This document shows positions 2 to 12,140 of a stretch of 64,000 nt of DNA, one piece after another (within the stretch, counting starts at the first letter, position 1; the number at the start of each line of letters is the position of its first letter). The notes beneath the pieces are model-generated. The model was given only the letters and a program-made list of their open reading frames with translations. It ran no database searches and was not told the DNA's origin. This DNA comes from a virus, in IMG/VR virus record IMGVR_UViG_3300027770_000032; one strand, 5' to 3'. The translations under genes and the position numbers were made by a program.

Positions 2-2596
2 ACTGTAGGTTCTAGCTTCATTGCCAACACGAGCAAAGTGGCTATCGGTACGGCAGTCGGACTTGAAGCGAACGGTGGTATCGGTACTGCCGGTCAAGTA
101 TTACACTCAAATGGTACTTCGATATACTGGGCAGTTGATGACAATGCCGGAGGAACAGTCACATCTGTCGCAACTGCCAACGGTCTTTCTGGTGGTCCAA
201 TTACATCAACTGGTACACTCGGTGTAACGACCGGTTCGACACTTACGGTGAATACTGCCGGCATTCATGTGAACTCAGCCTTATCAATCACATCTCTTAC
301 GTTAGCAGGTGCAGCTTCTGGTGTTACGACACTTGCTGCCGGTAATACAACAATTACAGGTTTTGCAAACGTAACAGGTAACGTACAAATAAGCGCGATC
401 AATGCAACCTCATTTGGCGCTACGCTTACTTCAAATTCAACGACCGCTATTTTAACTCTTGGCAACTCTTCTGTTACCGCAACAATGAATAGTTCAACCT
501 TTAGTGGCACTGCAAACAACTCTACGAATCTTGACGGGTCTTCATTAGCTACAGTACAAGGTCAAATTACTGGTAACGCTACTACTGCATATACAAACTC
601 AGTATCCTACACTGACACAAAGATCGGTACAGCGAATACTGCGATGGTTGCAAATGCCGGTGCAGCATATACCAATGCGACTATTTTTGCTGCCAATGCT
701 TCGAATGCAAACAATGGCACATTAGCTTTTGCTCGATTACCTTCATTGTTTGTTGGAACGACTACGATTCAGTCAACAAGTGCTGCACAAGCCGTAACAG
801 GTATTACGACGCTTGCCGCAGGTAACACGACGATTACTGGTGATATTACCGTTTCTGGTAACCTTACTATCAATGGTACTACAACCAATATAAATTCTAC
901 AAATCTTGTTGTAGAAGATAAAAACATTGTGCTTGCTGACGTAACTACTCCGACCGATGTGACTGCCGACGGTGGTGGTATTACTCTGAAAGGTGCCACC
1001 GATAAGACATTTAACTGGGTTGATGCAACTGACAGCTGGACTTCTTCTGAACATATCGATCTTGCGGCCGGTAAAGTCTATAAGATCGGTACTACTACTA
1101 TTGCTAACTCTACAGCTTTAGGTACTGGAATTCTTGCATCGTCTCTTACCTCTGTAGGCACTTTAAGTTCTCTTACGCTCGGTGGCGCAGTATCAGGCGT
1201 CACAACACTCGCTGCCGGTAATACTACTATTACTGGCTTTGCGAATGCTTCAGTTTCGGTCAACTCAGCATTGTTAACTGTGGGTACAGCCTTTGTTGCT
1301 AATACGATTGGAGCTTTTCACACTGGTACTGTTAACGCTGCATCATTTACAACCACTGGTTTAACAATTAATACTACTGCTATTGTTCCTACATCAAACT
1401 CATCAGGGCAGACATTAGGTAATACCACTTCTAGGTTTGTTTTGTCCGCCAACTCAATTGACACAACAGGCGCAATTAACATCGCCGCCGGGCAAGTGTT
1501 AAAATTCAATAATGATGTTGGTATTTCTCGCTCGCAAGCTGCAGTATTGTCTATCGGCAACGGAACTCAAAATGATTCTACTGGAACAATAAGTCTTACT
1601 GGTGGTTTATTTCAAGGCGCAGTCAATGCAGCTTCACATACTGTCGGTTCTAGCTTCATTGCCAACTCAACGGGCATTACATCAACTGGCTTTGCAAACG
1701 TATCGACTACATTACAAGTGGGAACGAATACAGCCACCTTTGGTACCGCTGTTTATATTATAGCAAGTGGTAACACCGGTGTTGGTACAAGTTCTCCGGC
1801 ATCACTGTTTCATGTCAAACGCGGCAGCAATGCTACCGAAAACTACCCTACTAATACTTGGGCGGCGCGCATTATCAATGCCACCGATGCCAATACTGAA
1901 AATGGCCTTGTTGTCGGCAATCGCTGGGCTGCGGTTGAGTCAACAATTTTTGAAGCCGGGTCGATTTATGGCGGAGGCTCTGCTTGGGCATCTTATTATA
2001 AAGTCACAGGCATTGGAACGCACACTTGGGGCACGGGCTCAACTGGCACTGAAGCTATGCGTATCGATACTAACGGTAACACTGGTATTGGTAACACCGC
2101 ACCGGCCCATAAATTATCGATAGGTGGCACGCTCGCAGCCGGTAACACTACGATCACGGGTTTTGCTAACGTATCGACCACTTTACAAGTAGGAGGCATT
2201 TCTACTCTTGCCGCAAACTTAGTAATGGCCAACAATTTTATTACTCGCCCAGTGTTAGCAGGTTACTCTGAACACGAAGTGTCAAACACGGCAGTTACTG
2301 GTACATTTACACTAGACTTTTCGACTGCAAACTTCTTCGATCTAATACTTACTGGAAACACGACAATCTCACCATCTGGAATTCCAGCGAATACAAGAAT
2401 GGTTTCTGCTACACTTGCAGTCAAACAAGATGCGACCGGAGGAAGAACCATTACATGGCCGACAGGTACTAAATACGCGGGTGCTGTCTCGCCTCCTGCG
2501 ACAACGACTGCAAATGCTGTCGATATCTGGTCGATTATGACGTACGATGCGGGCAATACTTACATTGTTTCATTGTCAGTAAAGAATGCGAGCTAA
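2..2596 (+). CDS. Long tail fibre protein, 5'-truncated by window edge
   Basis: Frame is open from base 2 (TVGSSFIANTSKVAIG...). T/G/A/N/S-rich with repeated TLAAGNTTITGFANV units and myovirus fibre motifs (VEDKNIVL...ADGGGITLKG.TDKTFNW, MRIDTNGNTGIG). C-terminal QDATGGRTITWP domain. Confidence 0.8.
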   Translation, partial: TVGSSFIANTSKVAIGTAVGLEANGGIGTAGQVLHSNGTSIYWAVDDNAGGTVTSVATANGLSGGPITSTGTLGVTTGSTLTVNTAGIHVNSALSITSLTLAGAASGVTTLAAGNTTITGFANVTGNVQISAINATSFGATLTSNSTTAILTLGNSSVTATMNSSTFSGTANNSTNLDGSSLATVQGQITGNATTAYTNSVSYTDTKIGTANTAMVANAGAAYTNATIFAANASNANNGTLAFARLPSLFVGTTTIQSTSAAQAVTGITTLAAGNTTITGDITVSGNLTINGTTTNINSTNLVVEDKNIVLADVTTPTDVTADGGGITLKGATDKTFNWVDATDSWTSSEHIDLAAGKVYKIGTTTIANSTALGTGILASSLTSVGTLSSLTLGGAVSGVTTLAAGNTTITGFANASVSVNSALLTVGTAFVANTIGAFHTGTVNAASFTTTGLTINTTAIVPTSNSSGQTLGNTTSRFVLSANSIDTTGAINIAAGQVLKFNNDVGISRSQAAVLSIGNGTQNDSTGTISLTGGLFQGAVNAASHTVGSSFIANSTGITSTGFANVSTTLQVGTNTATFGTAVYIIASGNTGVGTSSPASLFHVKRGSNATENYPTNTWAARIINATDANTENGLVVGNRWAAVESTIFEAGSIYGGGSAWASYYKVTGIGTHTWGTGSTGTEAMRIDTNGNTGIGNTAPAHKLSIGGTLAAGNTTITGFANVSTTLQVGGISTLAANLVMANNFITRPVLAGYSEHEVSNTAVTGTFTLDFSTANFFDLILTGNTTISPSGIPANTRMVSATLAVKQDATGGRTITWPTGTKYAGAVSPPATTTANAVDIWSIMTYDAGNTYIVSLSVKNAS

Positions 2597-2599
2597 GAT

Positions 2600-3922
2600 A
2601 TGGGTATTGGTGGAGGTTCTAAATTTACACTCGAAAAAACTTGGCGCGCAAGTGGTGTCGGCACGACTACGTTTAATGCACCAGGCAATATCGCAATCCC
2701 TTACGGTAGAAATGTAATCAACGTTGCTGGTGCAGGTGGCACCGGAACAGCAGCCATTTCTGGTAACTTAAACTATAATCCACTTGTACCAGGAACATTA
2801 AACTATAATCCACTTGTTCCAGGAACATTAAACTACAATCCACTCGTTCCTGGTACTCTTAACTATAACCCACTCGTTCCTGGTAACTTGAACTATAATC
2901 CACTTGTTCCTGGAACATTAAACTATAATCCTCTAGTTCCAGGCAATCTGAACTATAATCCGCTTGTTCCCGGAAACCTAAACTATAATCCACTTGTTCC
3001 TGGAACTGCCAACTATAATGCTGTCGTTCCGGGCACTTCTAACTATAATGCTGTCGTTCCGGGCACTTCTAACTATAATGCTGTCGTTCCAGGCAATTCT
3101 AACTTTAACCCAATTGTTCCAGGAACTGCGAGCACATATAATCCAGAGAGCGCAGGAACAGCGAGCTCATATAATGCTCCAAGCCCAGGAACAATTGCTG
3201 GATATACTCCCTATAAAGCCAAAGCGGGTACCGGAGGCAATCCGTTCTATAATGCTCCAACTGCTGGTAATCTGAATTATAACTCTCCTTCTCCAGGTAC
3301 AGTTGCAAGTTATAATTCTCCTTCAGGCGGCACATTTGCTGGTACTAATCCATCAAGTGGAGGTACATTTGCTGGTACTAATCCATCAAGTGGAGGTACA
3401 TTTGCTGGTACTAATCCATCAAGCGGCGGTACTTTATCTTCATACAATGCTCCAACTGGCCAAACATCGACCGGAACATATAATGCTCCAACTGGAAAAA
3501 CATCGACCGGAACATATAATGCTCCAACTGGTCAAACATCAACAGCAACATACAATGCTCCAACTGGCCAAACATCGACCGGAACATATAATGCTCCAAC
3601 TGGAAAAACATCAACAGGCACTTATAATGCACCAACGGGTCAAACCTCAACAGGCACTTATAATGCACCAACGGGTCAAACCTCGACCGGAACATATAAC
3701 GCTCCGACTGGACAAACGTCGTCAACATATAATCCAAATACTCCGGCAGTTGCCGGTACCTCATCATCAGCGCTCGGCGTGACAGCTCCCGGATCGGCGA
3801 CCGGAGGAACTCCAGCAACACCGGTAGGTCAAACACTTGTTAGCTATTATACATATCCAGATAACGCAACATATCCTGTGACAGTGGCTCCTGGGGGTAA
3901 TATAACTATAGTAGTATCGTAA
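2600..3922 (+). CDS. Gly/Pro/Thr-rich repeat protein, probable fibre-tip adhesin
   Basis: Directly follows the fibre gene. A Gly-rich domain (TTFNAPGNIAIPYG...VAGAGG / YPVTVAPGG) is split by ~330 aa of tandem repeats. Confidence 0.65.
   Translation: MGIGGGSKFTLEKTWRASGVGTTTFNAPGNIAIPYGRNVINVAGAGGTGTAAISGNLNYNPLVPGTLNYNPLVPGTLNYNPLVPGTLNYNPLVPGNLNYNPLVPGTLNYNPLVPGNLNYNPLVPGNLNYNPLVPGTANYNAVVPGTSNYNAVVPGTSNYNAVVPGNSNFNPIVPGTASTYNPESAGTASSYNAPSPGTIAGYTPYKAKAGTGGNPFYNAPTAGNLNYNSPSPGTVASYNSPSGGTFAGTNPSSGGTFAGTNPSSGGTFAGTNPSSGGTLSSYNAPTGQTSTGTYNAPTGKTSTGTYNAPTGQTSTATYNAPTGQTSTGTYNAPTGKTSTGTYNAPTGQTSTGTYNAPTGQTSTGTYNAPTGQTSSTYNPNTPAVAGTSSSALGVTAPGSATGGTPATPVGQTLVSYYTYPDNATYPVTVAPGGNITIVVS
2762..3745 (+). 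repeat. Coding tandem repeats: 30-nt (GxLNYNPLVP), 33-nt (GTFAGTNPSSG) and 36-nt (QTSTGTYNAPTG) units
   Basis: Directly visible. In-frame units with synonymous third-position variation. Confidence 0.95.
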
Positions 3923-3946: not shown

Positions 3947-4537
3947 ATGACTTTTGACTTTCAAAAATATAATGCGCCGTTGGAGTGTTTTGCTATATGG
4001 GAAGGTGGATTTACACCTGAAGAAGTAGACAAAATCCTTTATATGGAATCTCTCCAAAACTTTGGAAAAGGTACAGTAGGATCCGAGAATGCAGTTGCTA
4101 AAAAAGAAGTCAGAGACTCTGAAATAGCATGGATTCACCCCGATCAACATTCCCATTGGTTATTTGAACGACTTGCTGCAATCACATCAACCATAAATCA
4201 TCAACAATTTATGTATGATATTAAAGGTGTTGAACTTCTTCAATACACAAAATACAATATTAACCAACACTACACTTGGCACTGGGATGTTGAGTTTGGT
4301 TGGCAAAACTTTCAGCGTAAAATCTCTGCCACGATGATGCTCTCTGATCCTGATGAGTATGAAGGTGGTGAACTCGAGGTTTGCAATAATGGCAATTTTG
4401 AAGATACTAAAGTAGTGAAACCTAAAAAAGGTGATATTGTTTTCTTTGCATCTTGGATGCCGCATCGAGTAAAACCAGTTATTTCTGGTGAAAGAAAATC
4501 ATTGGTAATGTGGGTAATGGGAAAAAGGCAATCGTAA
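3947..4537 (+). CDS. 2OG-Fe(II) oxygenase, PKHD/prolyl-4-hydroxylase-like
   Basis: YTWHWD (HxD), YEGGEL, PHRVKPV (distal H), RKSLVMW (RxS). Confidence 0.9.
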   Translation: MTFDFQKYNAPLECFAIWEGGFTPEEVDKILYMESLQNFGKGTVGSENAVAKKEVRDSEIAWIHPDQHSHWLFERLAAITSTINHQQFMYDIKGVELLQYTKYNINQHYTWHWDVEFGWQNFQRKISATMMLSDPDEYEGGELEVCNNGNFEDTKVVKPKKGDIVFFASWMPHRVKPVISGERKSLVMWVMGKRQS

Positions 4538-5253
4538 TGTTTAACTTCTTTAAAAAACCGGTGATGGAATTCTATTGCCATCCAGAACAACATGGTGTTA
4601 TTCCTGAACCAAAACCGGCTGCAAAGTATATAGCAGATTGGTTTAAAAAAATTCCTGTCGATCTTGATGAAAGAGACACGTTTGGTGCTCGATCAATGTC
4701 TGCAAAGAAATGTATGCCAATGCTAGATGCAATGACATTAGGATACGTGATTCCTTTACAAGCAGATCTACATCTCATTTCTAATCACGATCGCACTCAT
4801 ATTGAGGTGACAAATCCTCCTGGTACAAAGATTTGTGAGTTTCATAATATCAAGCAAGTTGGTGAAAAGACTGCGCCCGGATTTCCGGCAGCTCCAATAA
4901 AGTTCATCAACTATTGGGTGATTAAAACAAAGCCCGGTTATTCTACGATGATCATGCCATTAGTTAATAATTTTGATAATGACTTTACGTGTTTGTCAGG
5001 TCTTGTCGACACTGATAGATATCCTAAAGAAATCAATTTTCCTGCAATCTGGCACACTCCTAACTTTGATGATATTATTCCAGCAGGAACTCCACTTGTT
5101 GTAGTGTTTCCTATTAAAAGAAGCGATATTCCATCTAAACCAATCGTCAGAGAAATGACCACTAAAGAATTTAAACACATTGATAATATCAAAAAAGCAC
5201 AAGACAGTCGTCGTCATGTCTATACACAAGAATTGAGGGAACCTAGAAAATGA
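4537..5253 (+). CDS. Conserved hypothetical protein of phage oxygenase clusters (DUF6065-like)
   Basis: KKCMPMLDAMTLGYVIP, W.IKT.PGYS, G.VDTD.Y, IPAGTPLV motifs. ATG overlaps the previous stop. Confidence 0.55.
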   Translation: MFNFFKKPVMEFYCHPEQHGVIPEPKPAAKYIADWFKKIPVDLDERDTFGARSMSAKKCMPMLDAMTLGYVIPLQADLHLISNHDRTHIEVTNPPGTKICEFHNIKQVGEKTAPGFPAAPIKFINYWVIKTKPGYSTMIMPLVNNFDNDFTCLSGLVDTDRYPKEINFPAIWHTPNFDDIIPAGTPLVVVFPIKRSDIPSKPIVREMTTKEFKHIDNIKKAQDSRRHVYTQELREPRK

Positions 5254-5969
5254 TTTTCAATTTTCTTAAAAAGAAAAAAGATCTTGAATTTGTAGATACC
5301 AGTAGAACTGCTTATCAGACATATCCTGTTGTAAGAGCGGCTGATATCAAACCGCGCACATTTGAATATCAAAAAAACAAATACAAAAAGCATATGTTGC
5401 CTCACTGCCCCGGTATGATTCAATATGCTGAGATGGGATATATTATTCCTGCATGGATTGATATTCACATTAGAGCGAATAAAGCAGGTGTTGCTCACTA
5501 TATTGGATCTGACGAACGCGGAACCCGCGGATATTTGCCAGGTAGAGTAATGGGTGCAGACGTAATCGATGGGATCTTTGAACCAGAAGATGGTGTTCCG
5601 TTGACTCCTCTTAATTTTGGAGCACCTTGGGCTATTTTTGGTCGTGGTAATATTACAGCCTTGTTATTACCTGCGATTTATCATTCAGACTTCTTAGACG
5701 ATTTGATGGTATTACCTGGATCTGTTGATTATGAAAAGTTTCATACTGCCAATTTTATCTGTGCTCCAAAGCGTGAGTGCGAGGTACATATCAAAGCTGG
5801 AGATCCTTTGTTGCATGTGATCCCGTTCTGGAATAAAGAATTTAATGCTGGATTTGGGCCTGGATCACAAGATCAAGTAGACAAATGGAATAATGAAATT
5901 CCCGGTGATGATAAACAATATTATCGTAGGTTTCAAATGTTAAAGAAAGTGTTTAGGTTGTCAAAATGA
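5250..5969 (+). CDS. Paralogue of the preceding hypothetical protein (DUF6065-like)
   Basis: CPGM...GYIIPAW, PGSVD, IKAGDPLLHVIPF align with the upstream gene. Confidence 0.55.
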   Translation: MIFNFLKKKKDLEFVDTSRTAYQTYPVVRAADIKPRTFEYQKNKYKKHMLPHCPGMIQYAEMGYIIPAWIDIHIRANKAGVAHYIGSDERGTRGYLPGRVMGADVIDGIFEPEDGVPLTPLNFGAPWAIFGRGNITALLLPAIYHSDFLDDLMVLPGSVDYEKFHTANFICAPKRECEVHIKAGDPLLHVIPFWNKEFNAGFGPGSQDQVDKWNNEIPGDDKQYYRRFQMLKKVFRLSK

Positions 5970-7036
5970 AAATATTTGTATCAATCTGTTCTTATAGAGA
6001 TCCACTTTTACATTATACTCTTGAGAGTTTAATTGAAAACAAATCAAATAGACACGAAGCAACTTACTCGATCTTAGAACAGATCGTATACAAAGACTCG
6101 CTTGAGAAGTTATATCCAGAACTTGTGGCAAGACCGGATGTTGTTTATAAAAGAGTCGAACCACAATATTCAGACGGGGTAGGTTGGGCGAGAAAGGTTA
6201 ACTCACTGAATGTAAGAGATGAGGATTTCTTTTATCAAATCGACAGTCATATGGTGTTCGATGAAAACTGGGATCGATATCTTGTAGAAGACTATAAGCG
6301 TGGTGTCAAGAAATCTGGTAGTAAGAAAGTTATTATTGACGGTGGAACTAAAACTTATACGTTAACTGAAAAGTTTGAACCGTATAAACATATAGAAGCT
6401 TACGGAATTACCACACATGCAAAATATTTTATGTGGGACAGAAATTCTATATTAGCAGTACATGGACATCATGTTCCTCCTACACCAGATGTGATGCCTA
6501 CAGCACATCTTTTTGCCGGCAATCTTTTTACTCATGTCGAATGGCTTCAAAATGTAGGAATCAATCATCTTTCGTTTTTTGATGCTGAAGAACAGCTTCT
6601 TACTATGACATCATTTGAAGCCGGTTACTATATGTACGCGCCGACTGAAGTTAAAGTATATCATTTCGCCGGATCCGGAGAGTATACTACTAAACAGTGG
6701 TATAAACCTATTATTAGTATGGATAAATACTCAGAATGCGTAAAAATATCTGTTAAACAGTGGACAGATTATCTTGAATATGTTCAAGAATCCGTTCTCA
6801 TAGATTACTACAAATATTCTGGCGTAGATTACATTAATCAAAAGATCGAAGATCGCGGTCGAGACTATCCTGCATTAGTCAGTAAAATGAATTATCCTTT
6901 GATACCAGGCGAAACTCACGTCGTTATTAATAAAGAAATTGAAGAAGACACTAAATCTAATATAATTGTTAATGAAGAAATTCAAGATGATAAAGGTGAA
7001 ATAACAAATGACAGTGCCGAATCTCAAACGGAATAG
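5966..7036 (+). CDS. Glycosyltransferase, GT60 / Skp1 hydroxyproline GlcNAc-transferase (Gnt1)-like
   Basis: IFVSICSYRDP, GVGWAR, QIDSHMVF..NWD (DxH), EE..L and YH motifs are typical of the GlcNAc/GT60 family. Confidence 0.8.
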   Translation: MKIFVSICSYRDPLLHYTLESLIENKSNRHEATYSILEQIVYKDSLEKLYPELVARPDVVYKRVEPQYSDGVGWARKVNSLNVRDEDFFYQIDSHMVFDENWDRYLVEDYKRGVKKSGSKKVIIDGGTKTYTLTEKFEPYKHIEAYGITTHAKYFMWDRNSILAVHGHHVPPTPDVMPTAHLFAGNLFTHVEWLQNVGINHLSFFDAEEQLLTMTSFEAGYYMYAPTEVKVYHFAGSGEYTTKQWYKPIISMDKYSECVKISVKQWTDYLEYVQESVLIDYYKYSGVDYINQKIEDRGRDYPALVSKMNYPLIPGETHVVINKEIEEDTKSNIIVNEEIQDDKGEITNDSAESQTE

Positions 7037-7469
7037 AGAATGTGGAGATTGTAAAGAATGCTGTACGGGCACTTTATATGCTGATATTTACGGAAAAATT
7101 ATGGATAAGGGAAGACCGTGTCACTACTTAGGTGGAGAGGGTTGCACTATTTATGAAAAAAGGCCAGGTGTTTGTAAAGCATATGCATGTGAATGGCTAA
7201 GAGATGATTCGACACTTATTCCAGAATGGATGAGACCGGATTTATCAAAAGTTATTATTACGCAAAAAGGCTGGGGTGATAATCTTCAACACAATTATTG
7301 GAATATCGCAGAAAGCCATCAGAAGATTGATTCTGTAATCTTAAATTGGGTCTATATGTATACGTCTTCTCATAATATATGTGCTAACATTGAAGTTGAC
7401 GGAAGATGGTATCAAATGGGCCCTCCCGAATTTGTAGAATATATGCAGAGAAGTGTTTCGGCGACTTAA
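7008..7469 (+). CDS. YkgJ/FliB-like cysteine-cluster (Fe-S/Zn) protein
   Basis: CGDCKECC...CHYL...GCTIYEKRPGVCKAYAC. Confidence 0.8.
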   Translation: MTVPNLKRNRECGDCKECCTGTLYADIYGKIMDKGRPCHYLGGEGCTIYEKRPGVCKAYACEWLRDDSTLIPEWMRPDLSKVIITQKGWGDNLQHNYWNIAESHQKIDSVILNWVYMYTSSHNICANIEVDGRWYQMGPPEFVEYMQRSVSAT

Positions 7470-7473
7470 ATCT

Positions 7474-8067
7474 ATGTTATACGAAGAAATAAAACTTAAA
7501 AATCCTGGGGTATTAAAAACAAAACTACCTAATGATATATTCAGGCAGATAAAAGCTGATGCACTTGCAGATGCTGAAAAAAAGATCCCATATAATGAAC
7601 ATTTAGTAGGTCAAATTGCTGGTGAATATCAAATCAAAGTAAATCCATATTTTGAAAAAATTATTAATAATATGTGGATTGAATATAGAGAAAGATTTGA
7701 CTATCATCTTTCAAACCAATATTATATTTCTGATACAGCATGGATAAATGTCCAGAAAAAACATGAATTCAATCCCGTGCATCATCATGAAGGTGCAGCA
7801 TCTTGGGTTATATGGTTACAGATCCCGTATGATTTAGAGGAAGAATTGAACACTTTTAAAAATGCAAAAAGTCGTGATACTTCTTTATTTTATTTTTATT
7901 ATAATTCGTTTATAGGAACACAAGAAAATTCCCCGCTGTATATTGATAAACAATGGGAAGGAACTATGATTATGTTTCCGGCGATGCTGAAGCATAGCGT
8001 ATATCCATTTTATACTACAGACTCTCCAAGAATTTCAATATCTGGGAACATTGAAGTCCATGCATGA
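7474..8067 (+). CDS. 2OG-Fe(II) oxygenase (TIGR02466-like)
   Basis: WIN.QKKHEFNPVHHH, FPAMLKHSVYPF, RISISGN. Start could be GTG 7453. Confidence 0.85.
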   Translation: MLYEEIKLKNPGVLKTKLPNDIFRQIKADALADAEKKIPYNEHLVGQIAGEYQIKVNPYFEKIINNMWIEYRERFDYHLSNQYYISDTAWINVQKKHEFNPVHHHEGAASWVIWLQIPYDLEEELNTFKNAKSRDTSLFYFYYNSFIGTQENSPLYIDKQWEGTMIMFPAMLKHSVYPFYTTDSPRISISGNIEVHA

Positions 8068-8890
8068 TATTCAATTTTGGAAAGAATTATGTCCAAATCT
8101 TACGATTGCAGAAATAGATCGTTGGGCAACACCGTCAGAAATTGCTATAGAAGATGTCAAAGATAAAATAGTTAACGACGGATATTTCCATATACCATTT
8201 GACTCATGGAATCTGCCTTTCGATGAAATGACTCGATGCATTGAAAAGTTAAAAGATCTTGATATGCAACCAGTATGGTGTTTTATATACGACGAGTTTT
8301 GGTTATTGACGGTCAAGATCGATGCACACATCAAATCTATTCTTGGTGAAAATTATTATCGGCTTCCTGAAGTGTGGGCATGGCATATCGATCCATCGAA
8401 AGAAGAAAGAGGCTGGAAGATACATCGAGAAGGCGGATATTATAGTACATTTGATGACGGTCTTCCAAAAACTTTAACTATCTGGATTCCTTTAACAGAT
8501 GCAACTTCAGAGAATGGTTGCATGTGTGTCGTGCCAATAGCAAACGATCCTAACTTTTATAATACAGACGAATCGTATTATGCAAATTGGCAAGAAGATT
8601 TTTATGATAATAGTAAAAAAATACTTGAAGCCAAATCAGGAGATGTGCTTGGATGGCATCCGCAGATATTACATTGGGGGAAAAAATCTACTAATAAAAA
8701 TGCAAATCCGCGAATATCAATATCCATGGAGTTTGTTTCGAATCGTATATTAGAACTAAATGATACTGCGTGTTTTTATGACAAAGAAGAACATCCATGG
8801 TTAGATCCATTTTATATTCCAGATCTGACTAAAAAGACAGAACTCATAAATAAGCTAGTATCACGATATCAACATATGTGGGAAAAGTAA
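8060..8890 (+). CDS. PhyH-family 2OG-Fe(II) dioxygenase
   Basis: WKIHRE, TIWIPLTDATSENGCM.VVP, GDVL...LHWG, PRISIS. Confidence 0.8.
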   Translation: MHDIQFWKELCPNLTIAEIDRWATPSEIAIEDVKDKIVNDGYFHIPFDSWNLPFDEMTRCIEKLKDLDMQPVWCFIYDEFWLLTVKIDAHIKSILGENYYRLPEVWAWHIDPSKEERGWKIHREGGYYSTFDDGLPKTLTIWIPLTDATSENGCMCVVPIANDPNFYNTDESYYANWQEDFYDNSKKILEAKSGDVLGWHPQILHWGKKSTNKNANPRISISMEFVSNRILELNDTACFYDKEEHPWLDPFYIPDLTKKTELINKLVSRYQHMWEK

Positions 8891-9499
8891 ATGCCTGAAC
8901 TAACCAAATACGAAAAATTAGTAAGACTTCAGCCGGTCGATTTTGTGCCTGAGATACAATTGTATCTATGTGATACAGCACATCACATCGTATATCCCGA
9001 TAGATATCCTTGTTGGGCATACGCATGGGTAGGCGGAAAGGCACTTGCCAGATATATTCTTGATAATCCGCAATTAGTTCAAGGCAAAACAATCATTGAC
9101 ATGGCAGCTGGATCTGGAATTGCAGCCATCGCAGCTAAAATGGCTGGCGCTGCAAGAGTAATAGCAGTCGATGACTATACACCGAGTATAGAAATCATGC
9201 AACTCAATGCTGAAGCGAATGGCGTTGAAATAGAATTGGTTCAACAAAGCGTTTTTGACTATCAACCAAGCCACGCCTATGACTTATTCATAATGGGCGA
9301 TCCATTCTATAACGATGATCTCTTCTCGTATGTTGAAAATAATTTCAAACCAGTACTTGTCGGATGCCCGGTAAGATCTCATACTTTGTATTATAATTTT
9401 TATGTAAAAAATCCAATACACACATATACTATTGAATCACCTCCAGGCTACGACGACTATCTCGAATTTGACACACACATTTGGTGGTTAAGTGCCTAA
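8891..9499 (+). CDS. SAM-dependent protein (lysine) methyltransferase, ETFbeta-KMT/PrmA-like
   Basis: WAYAWVGGKALARYILDNP, IIDMAAGSGIAAIAA motif I, LNAEANGV. Confidence 0.8.
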   Translation: MPELTKYEKLVRLQPVDFVPEIQLYLCDTAHHIVYPDRYPCWAYAWVGGKALARYILDNPQLVQGKTIIDMAAGSGIAAIAAKMAGAARVIAVDDYTPSIEIMQLNAEANGVEIELVQQSVFDYQPSHAYDLFIMGDPFYNDDLFSYVENNFKPVLVGCPVRSHTLYYNFYVKNPIHTYTIESPPGYDDYLEFDTHIWWLSA

Positions 9500-10250
9500 A
9501 TTTACGTGTTTATTAACACCAGGAAGATCGGGCTCTACGTTTTTATACACTGCATTTAATCAAATTCCAAATACTATTGCACATGAATCATACTATGTGT
9601 GTACTGATAATATCGAGCAGTGTTTTTCTTCTATTTACGGAAAATCGTTGGCAGAAAAAAACAGATTCATAAAGTCTAAGATCGAATATATCGAAAACTT
9701 AGACTGTGAATACTATGTTGATACTGTATCTCTTATATGCCAAGATAATAACTTAGAGTTGTTTATCGATAACGGTTATAAACCAAATGTCATTACGCTT
9801 CGCCGTGATCCAAGAGATGTTGCCTTAAGCTGGTATAGTTTTGGTTGGGATCCGACTAAGTCGCCTTTAACATCTGTCAATCCAAATGACAAAGATGCCA
9901 TCAAAATCACATTACAGGATCCACATGATTATCAATATTGTTTATGGTATTGCTTTGAGATTGAAAGACTGTGTAGACAATATAAAACAAAACTTGAATC
10001 TTGGGGCGTCAAACATTATGAAACATCCTTGTCTCATATAATAGACAAAGACAAGTTTAATTTGATGTTAGATTTTTTTGAAATGCCTAACATATCAGAG
10101 ATATGTCAAGGTAAAATAAATGAACTGAATGAATTTAAGGTCAGATCATTAGAAAATCATCTAATTCCTGAGTTGCAACAGCAGTTTCTAGAAAACATTA
10201 GAGACAATAATGACATAGAGTTTTTTGATATGGATCAGTGGAACTATTAG
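9492..10250 (+). CDS. Sulfotransferase-like protein
   Basis: PGRSGST (5'-PSB loop) and LRRDPRDVALSW (3'-PB). Confidence 0.65.
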   Translation: MPKFTCLLTPGRSGSTFLYTAFNQIPNTIAHESYYVCTDNIEQCFSSIYGKSLAEKNRFIKSKIEYIENLDCEYYVDTVSLICQDNNLELFIDNGYKPNVITLRRDPRDVALSWYSFGWDPTKSPLTSVNPNDKDAIKITLQDPHDYQYCLWYCFEIERLCRQYKTKLESWGVKHYETSLSHIIDKDKFNLMLDFFEMPNISEICQGKINELNEFKVRSLENHLIPELQQQFLENIRDNNDIEFFDMDQWNY

Positions 10251-10849
10251 TCTCTATAAACAGGAAGTGGAAAACCATATTGTGCTACATTTCCTGGTGA
10301 AACATAATGTAAAAAGGCTTGTGTGATAGATTTTTGTTCTACCTTTGGTCGATAATGCCATCTTCCGTCAAATTCGGTTGTGCCATAAAACATAATAGCA
10401 TCTCCTTCTTCCATAAAGACTTCTACAGGATTTGATCCGTGTTCGTCATCACAGAAACATAAAGACGTTGGCTGATCGCCGTCTTTGTCAATTAGTATAG
10501 TAGCTGAGAATTCACAGACAGAACGATCTCGATGGATCTTGAGTTCAGAATCGGTATAATATTGCCTAAAAAATACATAAGAAGGAATCAATTCAGTATT
10601 AAAGATGTCTTGCACTTTATTCTTATATGCGAGCAGCATACTATCAGCAAAGATAGTAGGTTGATAGTGATCGACATTGCCAATGAGATAAGGATTTGCT
10701 TCTACAGTCTTAATATTCGAAGCCTGTGAAACATCCATAAAAGACTTACAAATCTGAATTACTTCTGCAGATAAAAAGTTCTTGATGAGAACATATCCAT
10801 GTTTTTTAAGATGTTTTCTAGCGTTTTTCATTATATGCCTTTCATCCAC
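10247..10849 (-). CDS. 2OG-Fe(II) oxygenase
   Basis: R.Y...L.IHRDRSVCEFS, GDA.MFYG, WHYR, QAFLHYV. Confidence 0.8.
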   Translation of the reverse strand: MDERHIMKNARKHLKKHGYVLIKNFLSAEVIQICKSFMDVSQASNIKTVEANPYLIGNVDHYQPTIFADSMLLAYKNKVQDIFNTELIPSYVFFRQYYTDSELKIHRDRSVCEFSATILIDKDGDQPTSLCFCDDEHGSNPVEVFMEEGDAIMFYGTTEFDGRWHYRPKVEQKSITQAFLHYVSPGNVAQYGFPLPVYRD

Positions 10850-11592
10850 TTTGTTCCATGCTTCGAGCTGTACTTTGTTTCAGGATCGTATGCTGCAAAA
10901 TCTTCGTAGCGAGGATCTCCTGGCTCAGCTCGCTTGCCGATGCTATACTCGCCGATATGATTGACGATGTTATTTCCTTCTTCGGTCTTGAGCTTACATG
11001 TTTGCATGCCAAGTTGTTGCAACGATTTCGCGACGACATACTCACTTAAGTTCTTCTCGCCTACTGATTCGGTATGAGGAAGATCTACTATGGCACGCGG
11101 AAAAACACTTGCCAAACTCCAAAAATATGCTTCAGAAAGTTCTCCTCGATATTTTCCGAGTGTAATGTCTGTTTCATAAGCCTGAGTTTCCTCTTCAAAA
11201 TCATACCATTTTTGTCTTGTCAAACATACTTGAGAAACGTTACGATAATCATGTAAGATCTGAGTCATGTCGAGCATTCGAATCGGACAGTTGAACGTCA
11301 CATCATCTTCTGATAGATACACGTAGTCATAATCTCGTTCTCTCAGCAGTTCGAAGGTTCGATTCCATACGTATGGCAAACCCATATTCTGTTGATGTAA
11401 GAAGATCTCGGTAAAACCAAAACTTTTGGCTAACTCGAACATCGTACCATCGTGGCGACCTTTTGGCATATCATCGATAAAGATGCCTTCGACTTCACAA
11501 CCTTCAAAGTCTAACATATCACGCTGAGATTTGAGTGTAGGAATTAAATACTCGAGTCGATTCGTCGACCATATTACTTTACAAACTTTCAT
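10831..11592 (-). CDS. Glycosyltransferase, GT-A (GT2-like)
   Basis: IFIDD, N.GL, YVYLSEDD, HIG motifs. Confidence 0.65.
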   Translation of the reverse strand: MKVCKVIWSTNRLEYLIPTLKSQRDMLDFEGCEVEGIFIDDMPKGRHDGTMFELAKSFGFTEIFLHQQNMGLPYVWNRTFELLRERDYDYVYLSEDDVTFNCPIRMLDMTQILHDYRNVSQVCLTRQKWYDFEEETQAYETDITLGKYRGELSEAYFWSLASVFPRAIVDLPHTESVGEKNLSEYVVAKSLQQLGMQTCKLKTEEGNNIVNHIGEYSIGKRAEPGDPRYEDFAAYDPETKYSSKHGTKWMKGI

Positions 11593-12140
11593 CTCACTTG
11601 CTCCGTGTCAAAAAAGAATGTCTGAAAAAGACGTCCATCATATAAATCTTTCCCAAAGTAATCTAAGCTAGCATGGAAAAGGTCACCGCTATAAAGAATC
11701 AATCGATTGTATTTGTTGCCTACAACATCGATTCGATCCCACTTGGTATAGTCATATGCTTCGTGCTCGTTTGTTGGAGCCCGATATTCGCCTGTTTCTT
11801 TGTGCCGATACATGGCAGTGCCAGCGGTATATGGAGCATCTGGTGACAAGTAGCATACACCAGCCCACATGCTTGTATGATCGCAATGAATCCACGTTCG
11901 ATCTAAAGCGGTAGCGTATTGAAAGGCACCAGTATAACCGGAATCTTCGTGCCAATTGGAAATCTTTCCGACTGGATTCATCCAATGCTGAATGCAATCT
12001 TTGACATCTTGTGTCAAGAATGAAGGTGTTCGTTTTCCTGGATAGTTACCTATGACGCCAAAGTCTTGAGTTAAAGCAAAGGCTCTGACCGCGTCTGGAT
12101 TGATATAGAAGTTATCAATAATCATCAAGTCTAAATTCAT
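11589..12140 (-). CDS. 2OG-Fe(II) oxygenase-like protein (DUF6445-like)
   Basis: IIDNFY.NPD.VR, YPGKR, WIHCD, YNRLILY...FH, RLFQTFF. Confidence 0.7.
   Translation of the reverse strand: MNLDLMIIDNFYINPDAVRAFALTQDFGVIGNYPGKRTPSFLTQDVKDCIQHWMNPVGKISNWHEDSGYTGAFQYATALDRTWIHCDHTSMWAGVCYLSPDAPYTAGTAMYRHKETGEYRAPTNEHEAYDYTKWDRIDVVGNKYNRLILYSGDLFHASLDYFGKDLYDGRLFQTFFFDTEQVR

Follow-up and report, generated by a model that had tools for sequence, protein, structure and literature searches.

Two tandem-repeat arms of co-varying copy number in a protein encoded beside a tail-fibre gene of an uncultured T4-like phage

Introduction

Out-and-back needles and separate tip adhesins are both already known from T4-like phages. 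In the tip of T4 gp37, residues 811-881 and 1010-1026 make up the D10 collar, and the elongated D11 domain (residues 882-1009) is inserted between them and carries the receptor-binding tip (PMC6957217). The gp38 adhesins of T2/S16-type Straboviridae are described as separate tip proteins whose gene adjoins the distal fibre gene; they are modular proteins in which a Gly-rich up-and-down scaffold bears variable host-facing loops (PMC12032242; Dunne et al., 2018). Here, we describe P0001, a protein encoded just after a tail-fibre gene in a 64,000-nucleotide stretch of virus DNA (IMG/VR record IMGVR_UViG_3300027770_000032; hereafter the window, meaning the whole of that stretch). P0001 carries an outgoing and a returning arm of short tandem units, and among its relatives the copy numbers of the two arms vary together.

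Two systems beyond phages offer useful points of reference. The antiparallel coiled-coil arms of SMC, Rad50 and MukB consist of out-and-back halves which must match in length, and insertions and deletions in them are compensated across evolution. They are alpha-helical coiled coils in ATPases, have no short tandem repeats and are unrelated to P0001 in sequence and function. Prolyl hydroxylation combined with N-acetylglucosamine (GlcNAc) addition is known from the Skp1 pathway of Dictyostelium and Toxoplasma, and hydroxyproline is also found in proteins of the collagen and extensin type.

Unit arrays of P0001

Residues 55-382 of P0001 (nt 2762-3745) are tiled without gaps by 30 units, the lengths of which are given in order in Table 1. 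The outgoing units comprise eight G(T/N)LNYNPLVP, three GT(A/S)NYNAVVP, one GNSNFNPIVP and two 11-mers, after which the turn unit follows. All units listed for this region in the first-pass annotation, which had proposed a mirror-symmetric hairpin, were recovered, 30 in a row. Its count of 15 units out and 15 back holds if the turn unit is joined to the outgoing arm, whereas the automatic parse reads 14 units, the turn and 15 units.

The arrays were detected independently by Tandem Repeats Finder, with a 30-nt period repeated 12 times at 2768-3127, a 33-nt period repeated 3.1 times at 3332-3432 (97% matches) and a 36-nt period repeated 7.8 times at 3441-3721. Three-unit periods of 90 and 108 nt, one per arm (2762-3079 and 3441-3717), outscored the single-unit ones. 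The DNA identity between units is 70-100%; the two blocks of three units are very recent (DNA identities of 87-97% and 91-97%), and the two long blocks are intermediate in age. Pro makes up 13% of the insert, Asn 15% and Ser plus Thr 26%, and charged residues are nearly lacking. Thr, Asn, Gly, Pro, Ser and Tyr together account for 76% of it, while His, Cys, Asp and Arg are absent there and His is absent from the entire protein. The outgoing arm contains 12 V-P-G junctions.

Co-variation of arm copy numbers across the family

A word-indexed search returned 66 homologues of P0001, and a profile search of 1.84 billion cluster representatives returned 248 at E ≤ 1e-3 and 181 at E ≤ 1e-10, all members being from metagenomes or uncultured genomes. 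For the comparison of arms, an automatic parser located the unit anchors, split the arms at gaps and kept those proteins whose arms abut the cores. This gave a two-arm set of 57 proteins, three of which have very short knobs and were counted by eye. A cruder first parser had given a rho of 0.53; it had counted chance anchors inside knobs and was replaced.

In the two-arm set, the unit counts per arm range from 2 to 15, and outgoing and returning counts are correlated (Spearman 0.73, p = 9e-11). The two arms have equal counts in 46% of the proteins, compared to 14% after shuffling, and differ by at most one unit in 79%, compared to 38%. The slope of returning on outgoing counts is 1.00 in units; when measured in residues, the returning arm is about 10% longer (39/57, p = 3e-4). 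Relatedness was controlled for by means of a tree built from core residues only, which provided 28 non-overlapping sister pairs. Where both arms had changed within a pair, the change was in the same direction in 17 cases and in opposite directions in 3 (sign test p = 0.0026), with a correlation through the origin of 0.74.

Members with four arms (n = 21) follow the pattern 6/x/x/6, in which x ranges from 2 to 6 or more. Arms 2 and 3 are equal in 62% of them, against 28% after shuffling, and the counts of arms 1 and 2, and of arms 3 and 4, do not track each other; the layout is therefore nested rather than two hairpins in series. Because the inner arms vary together and the outer arms stay fixed and equal, a lineage-wide tendency towards repeat expansion is excluded as the explanation. 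A six-arm relative, P0014, reads about 6/6/3/3/7/6. Co-variation of the arm copy numbers among homologues had been proposed in the first-pass annotation as a check on the hairpin, and it is borne out by the correlation, by the sister pairs and by the nested four- and six-arm relatives. Mirror architecture is genuine and characterises the family as a whole.

Conserved and variable parts of the family

The N- and C-terminal core motifs are common to all members, and the arms share a unit pattern of G-N/T, 3-5 residues, an aromatic residue or Asn, Asn, Pro/Ala and 2-3 further residues. The Gly, Asn, aromatic and Asn-Pro positions are kept in every unit across homologues whose cores are only 30-40% identical. 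Two classes of unit can be distinguished, an aromatic 'x-Y-N-P' class and a Gly-rich 'A-G-N/T-N-P' class. The arms of one protein usually differ in class, in either order; two Gly-rich arms were never seen together, and the class fractions show an inverse correlation between the arms (rho -0.39 to -0.50). Classing arms by the junction residue proved too noisy. No systematic difference between outgoing and returning arms was found in hydrophobicity, Pro, Gly or Ser/Thr content, a slightly higher aromatic content of the returning arms being the sole compositional difference seen.

Between the arms, relatives carry aromatic or Cys-containing distal knobs of 11-185 aa, and some have no knob. P0183 and P0172 consist of core and knob without arms, P0074 has 3/3 arms and no knob, and P0001 combines the longest arms seen in the family with a minimal turn of 16 residues. 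The Lys-containing tip to which the first-pass annotation had drawn attention is thus restricted to P0001. A subgroup (P0130, P0155, P0065, P0064 and P0122) places a longer unit of about 22-26 residues (T-N-Y-N-x-x-Y-P-I-A-N-Q-P) on the same core, which suggests that the stalk principle may have been rebuilt with another repeat.

No earlier description of the family emerged from these searches. Neither P0001, its C-terminal core and P0020 (tblastn) nor 12 kb of the window (megablast) found relatives in 50,697 deposited phage records, and Pfam and PHROGs gave no family match for P0001 or the 66 members. A search for related loci with alignment A3 returned nothing. Several known families were considered and rejected. 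Membership of Gly_rich_2 (PF21722) was tried, with no match among the 66 members at E ≤ 0.1 and an hhalign probability of 0.1% against the Gly_rich_2 protein of locus L002. The gp38 adhesin family and the tail-fibre chaperone family (Tfa or T4 gp38 type) gave no match in Pfam or PHROGs, and a collagen-like repeat does not fit units of 10-12 residues with one or two Gly and no Gly-X-Y triplet.

Core domain and predicted structure

In the AlphaFold2 model of P0001 (66-sequence alignment), residues ~12-60 and ~375-440 form a single beta-sandwich (predicted local distance difference test score, pLDDT, 91-97). The linkers from the core to the first unit and from the last unit back to the core are about 4 and 10 residues long. 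Since both flanks build one predicted domain and are joined to the repeats by short linkers, the repeats would be an excursion that comes back to its point of departure. Insertion into one compact domain was part of the first-pass annotation and agrees with the model (pLDDT above 90 in the flanks); its assignment of that domain to a Gly-rich type is not supported by hidden Markov model searches or profile comparison. Isolated beta-bridges assigned by DSSP at residues 50/53/57 and 377/381/384 show mirrored spacing, as they do in the model of the four-arm member P0047, and this pattern would fit an antiparallel pairing of the arms at their base.

The predicted beta-sandwich core has no clear relative. 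A wide VIA fold search of the Protein Data Bank (PDB) with the P0001 core reached at best Z 5.7, to unrelated beta-sandwiches, with no gp37 or gp12 chain among the matches; matches to trimeric C1q/TNF-like jelly rolls were weak (Z 4.2-4.8) and within the chance range (Z < 6). Foldseek against the PDB gave nothing below E 5 for the core. In BFVD, one unnamed match was found (E 1e-6, TM 0.17), the remaining matches having E > 0.4. About one third of the 50 weak BFVD matches, all at E > 0.4, carry a Gly_rich_2-type name. The P0047 model reached Z ≤ 5.4 at best, and the ESM Atlas, which lists the P0001 sequence without a model, gave no feature matches for it.

Gene neighbourhood

The features of the window around P0001 are collected in Table 1. 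The window is part of an uncultured T4-like myovirus in which the terminase, sheath, portal, major head protein, helicase and DNA polymerase are recognisable, and its major head protein shares no more than 62% identity with those of pelagimyophages, Methylophilales phages and cyanomyophages. At the P0038 locus (L011, 4180-5344), genes for a heme oxygenase and a ferredoxin-dependent bilin reductase are present, so at least this carrier is a cyanophage.

Table 1. Coordinates of the repeat-protein gene, its parts and the flanking genes in the window.
Feature	Position	Strand	Details
Tail-fibre gene of at least 864 aa, incomplete at the window's 5' end	2..2596	+	PHROG tail-fibre families match residues 730-860
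Conserved C-terminal domain of the fibre gene, last ~130 residues	2201-2593	+	Alignment A4, tblastn
P0001 repeat-protein gene	2600..3922	+	440 aa, stop-free translation; start 3 nt past the fibre-gene stop codon
N-terminal part of the predicted beta-sandwich core, residues 1-54	2600..2761	+	AlphaFold2 strands 21-25, 29-33, 40-45 (pLDDT 91-97); motifs K-T-W, F-N, P-Y-G, G-x-G-G-T-G (alignments A1, A2)
Outgoing arm, 14 units: 12 of ten residues, then 2 of eleven residues	2762..3187	+	
Turn unit, 16 residues (Tyr, Pro, two Lys); occupies the site of the distal knob in relatives	3188..3235	+	
Returning arm, 15 units: 2 of 10, 5 of 11, 7 of 12 and 1 of 11 residues	3236..3745	+	
C-terminal part of the predicted beta-sandwich core, residues 383-440, and stop codon	3746..3922	+	AlphaFold2 strands 389-439 (pLDDT 94-97); motifs L-G-V, Y-P-D...T-Y-P-V
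2-oxoglutarate (2OG)-Fe(II) oxygenase, prolyl-4-hydroxylase-like	3947..4537	+	PF13640 E 1e-19; H-x-D, distal H and R-K-S motifs in the translation
Two paralogous DUF6065-type genes	4510-5253 and 5250-5969	+	PF19541, phrog_7084; pair kept in other loci
Glycosyltransferase, Pfam family 'GlcNAc'	5966..7036	+	PF11397 E 1.2e-22

Upstream, a gene with the fibre C-terminal domain lies directly before the repeat-protein gene in 11 of 13 loci. This domain of about 100-130 residues is 47-70% identical upstream of homologues, even where the repeat proteins themselves are only 30-40% alike. The order of the genes is what suggests that P0001 may be a fibre-tip protein, as the first-pass annotation calls it. 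The upstream gene carries the label PF26209 (Phage_phiTE_241_C) among the collection's precomputed Pfam matches, and a search with the C-terminal domain matched 229 phage records. It occurs in the baseplate region of rV5-like coliphages as a stand-alone 157-aa 'tail fiber protein' of ~36% identity, for instance in Escherichia phage alia (L014, NC_052655.1, 3872-4345). In locus L009, the domain is found 6 kb upstream of the repeat-protein gene and is not adjacent to it.

Downstream, a module of a prolyl-4-hydroxylase-like oxygenase, two DUF6065-type genes and often a PF11397 transferase recurs (3947-7036 in the window; loci L001, L004-L007 and L009-L013). It is present in 8 of the 10 lineages with readable downstream genes and absent from the P0021 (L002) and L008 lineages. 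The oxygenase copies are 47-61% identical downstream of homologues and lie directly downstream in most loci, and the PF11397 transferase is also found in L009, L010, L011, L012, L013 and the contig of P0002. Because the module recurs beside the repeat-protein gene, the arms are a good candidate substrate of its hydroxylase and transferase. A literature search found nothing relevant on DUF6065, nor on cyanophage prolyl hydroxylase in connection with fibres.

Further genes of interest lie in the same regions. In the window, positions 7008-12140, before the neck genes, hold candidate protein-modifying genes: a CxxCxxCC protein, a 2OG-FeII_Oxy_5 gene, a PhyH-type dioxygenase, a PrmA/Methyltransf_16-like methyltransferase, a sulfotransferase-like gene and DUF6445. 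A few genes past the module at the P0029 locus (L013, 14475-16361), a 628-aa protein combines Glyco_transf_25 and GT_PLOD (collagen-type glycosyltransferase) domains. In L009, prolyl-4-hydroxylase-like and DUF6065 genes are found on both sides of the repeat-protein gene (5581-6899 and 7827-10838).

Proposed stalk and competing explanations

An out-and-back stalk with paired arms is the best-supported explanation of these findings and is, on balance, probable. About 110 residues from both chain ends would form one beta-sandwich of a phage structural-region protein, and from one loop of this sandwich the outgoing arm would lead to a distal element and the returning arm of related units would lead back. 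The distal element would be the 16-residue Tyr/Lys loop in P0001 and the aromatic or Cys-containing knob in relatives. The arms would most likely lie side by side, antiparallel and roughly unit against unit, and the length of the stalk would be set by the number of unit pairs, altered by tandem-repeat slippage and compensated between the arms over time. Gene order makes the conserved C-terminal domain of the upstream fibre protein the probable docking site of the sandwich. The stalk would then present its distal element to the host, possibly for receptor binding, and the hydroxylase and glycosyltransferase module inherited along with the gene probably modifies the arms.

Several observations weigh against this stalk. 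A number of members are unmatched, with counts of 3/8 (P0011), 4/7 (P0019), 2/8 (P0082), 7/5 (P0009) and 11/14 (P0025). Within 90% clusters, single-arm variants occur in 100%-identical backgrounds, namely P0200 (7/6 vs 7/7) and P0208 (6/5 vs 6/6), and P0238 reads 9/8 vs 6/8 in an otherwise identical background, with three extra outgoing units. The low-complexity arm sequence, rich in Gly, Asn, Pro, Thr and Ser, could be disordered, and in the AlphaFold2 models of both P0001 and the four-arm P0047 (21 sequences) only cores and knobs are folded and the arms have pLDDT below 50. The mirrored 'recency' of units within P0001 is not significant either (rho 0.31, p = 0.27; in an alternative register 0.51, p = 0.06).

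Each of these points has its own bearing. The mirror order of blocks described in the first-pass annotation has no statistical support within P0001, and it is the family comparison, not the within-gene test, that places the symmetry of the arms beyond chance. The same annotation had counted disordered arms as evidence against a hairpin; the two AlphaFold2 runs nominally point that way for the arms, although the alignments over them are shallow and ambiguous in register. The single-arm variants are either real slippage products, as expected for intermediates of compensated change, or errors of short-read assembly; they indicate that strict register is not required or that some metagenome assemblies mis-count the repeats. 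P0238 differs from P0050 by exactly three units, and one-arm copy-number variants of identical or near-identical proteins were seen on different contigs for P0200, P0204, P0208, P0209 and P0238. The claim that the arms must be kept in register was too strong in view of these variants and of the unmatched members, even though the counts do co-vary. Register is a long-term tendency and not an absolute rule.

The geometry and oligomeric state of such arms could differ from a simple side-by-side pair. It is possible, if rather doubtful, that the arms are paired otherwise, in a trimer with a six-stranded needle or triple beta-helix, as in T4 gp37 and gp5, or as two rung stacks packed antiparallel. 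Matching per unit rather than per residue would suit this, as would the three-unit higher-order periods in both arms and the weak resemblance of the core to trimeric C1q/TNF-like jelly rolls. Trimers are common among fibre proteins, and the out-and-back needle of T4 gp37 is likewise inserted in a compact domain (PMC6957217). However, the fold matches in question fall within the chance range, and the arms have no His or Cys for metal sites or disulfides.

It is unlikely that the arms are extended, largely unstructured or polyproline-II-like tethers, heavily modified in the manner of mucins or extensins and without specific contact, whose lengths would track loosely simply because they span the same distance from core to distal element. 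The low pLDDT of the arms, their almost uncharged Pro-, Asn- and Ser/Thr-rich composition, the conserved hydroxylase and glycosyltransferase module next door and the apparent tolerance of single-arm variants would all agree with such tethers. Yet unit positions are kept where cores have diverged to 30-40% identity, the two arms are usually of complementary classes, and the inner arms of four-arm members are equal in most cases. Moreover, what balances is the count of units, with a slope of 1.00, and not the length in residues, which differs by ~10%.

A role for P0001 as a fibre assembly chaperone outside the virion, like T4 gp38 or lambda Tfa, in which case the repeats would be no ruler, appears improbable. 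The gene right after the distal fibre gene is often a chaperone in T4 and lambda, and P0001 starts only 3 nt past the fibre-gene stop. Against this, no chaperone family matched in Pfam or PHROGs, and the upstream fibre domain is conserved, in contrast to the highly variable knobs and arm lengths, which is the pattern of an exposed, host-facing part. Least probable of all is that the 15/15 symmetry of P0001 arose by coincidence or through faulty assembly of a repetitive region. In its favour, the count hinges on the assignment of the turn unit, units 70-100% identical in DNA can be mis-counted by short-read assembly, and the within-gene mirror test was not significant. Against it, the arms co-vary family-wide in independently assembled homologues from many samples.

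Taken more broadly, the paired-arm stalk may, tentatively, represent a widespread and undescribed class of phage fibre tip. In such a class, a host-binding knob would stand on a two-armed stalk of 0 to 15 unit pairs, set by compensated slippage and nested in some members. A dedicated pathway inherited together with it, comprising prolyl hydroxylase, DUF6065 proteins and GlcNAc transferase, would assemble or stiffen the stalk. Such a system would be the phage equivalent of the eukaryotic hydroxyproline glycoproteins, tuning reach through host surface layers. The family itself would provide a natural series of stalks, of 0 to 15 unit pairs, for relating fibre reach to adsorption, and a clear example of compensated copy-number change within a single protein. 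Many 2OG-Fe(II) oxygenase genes of aquatic T4-like phages lack an explanation, and the tight linkage to the module points to a concrete candidate for their substrate.

Comparison with known systems

The T4 gp37 tip is the closest structural precedent. As modelled, P0001 too has an elongated out-and-back insert in a compact domain made by the flanking segments, and its gene order would place it, like the gp37 needle, at the distal end of the fibre in a T4-like phage, the far tip facing the host. The differences are considerable. The gp37 needle belongs to the fibre chain itself, whereas P0001 is a separate small protein; the gp37 trimer is held by seven iron ions on His motifs, whereas P0001 has no His; and the gp37 needle lacks variable-number tandem repeats, whereas P0001 has 30 tandem units. 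No sequence similarity between the two was detectable, and no gp37 chain was among the fold matches of the core.

The likeness to the gp38 adhesins lies in gene arrangement, since the P0001 gene also adjoins a fibre gene (at 3 nt; 11/13 loci for the family) and a conserved fibre end stands beside a hypervariable small protein. The units differ, being Asn/Pro/aromatic 10-12-mers in P0001 and polyglycine motifs in gp38, and the two long arms of variable copy number in P0001 contrast with a fixed sandwich in gp38.

The comparison with Skp1 and the extensins is drawn from genes: PF13640 oxygenase and PF11397 transferase genes lie beside the gene of a Pro-rich repeat protein, the V-P-G junctions of which resemble X-Pro-Gly sites. 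Unlike collagen, P0001 has no Gly-X-Y repeat, and the arms of some relatives are almost without Pro, as in the returning arm of P0006. Beside these known systems, what is new, as far as searches show, is a putative needle of two tandem-repeat arms with co-evolving copy numbers.

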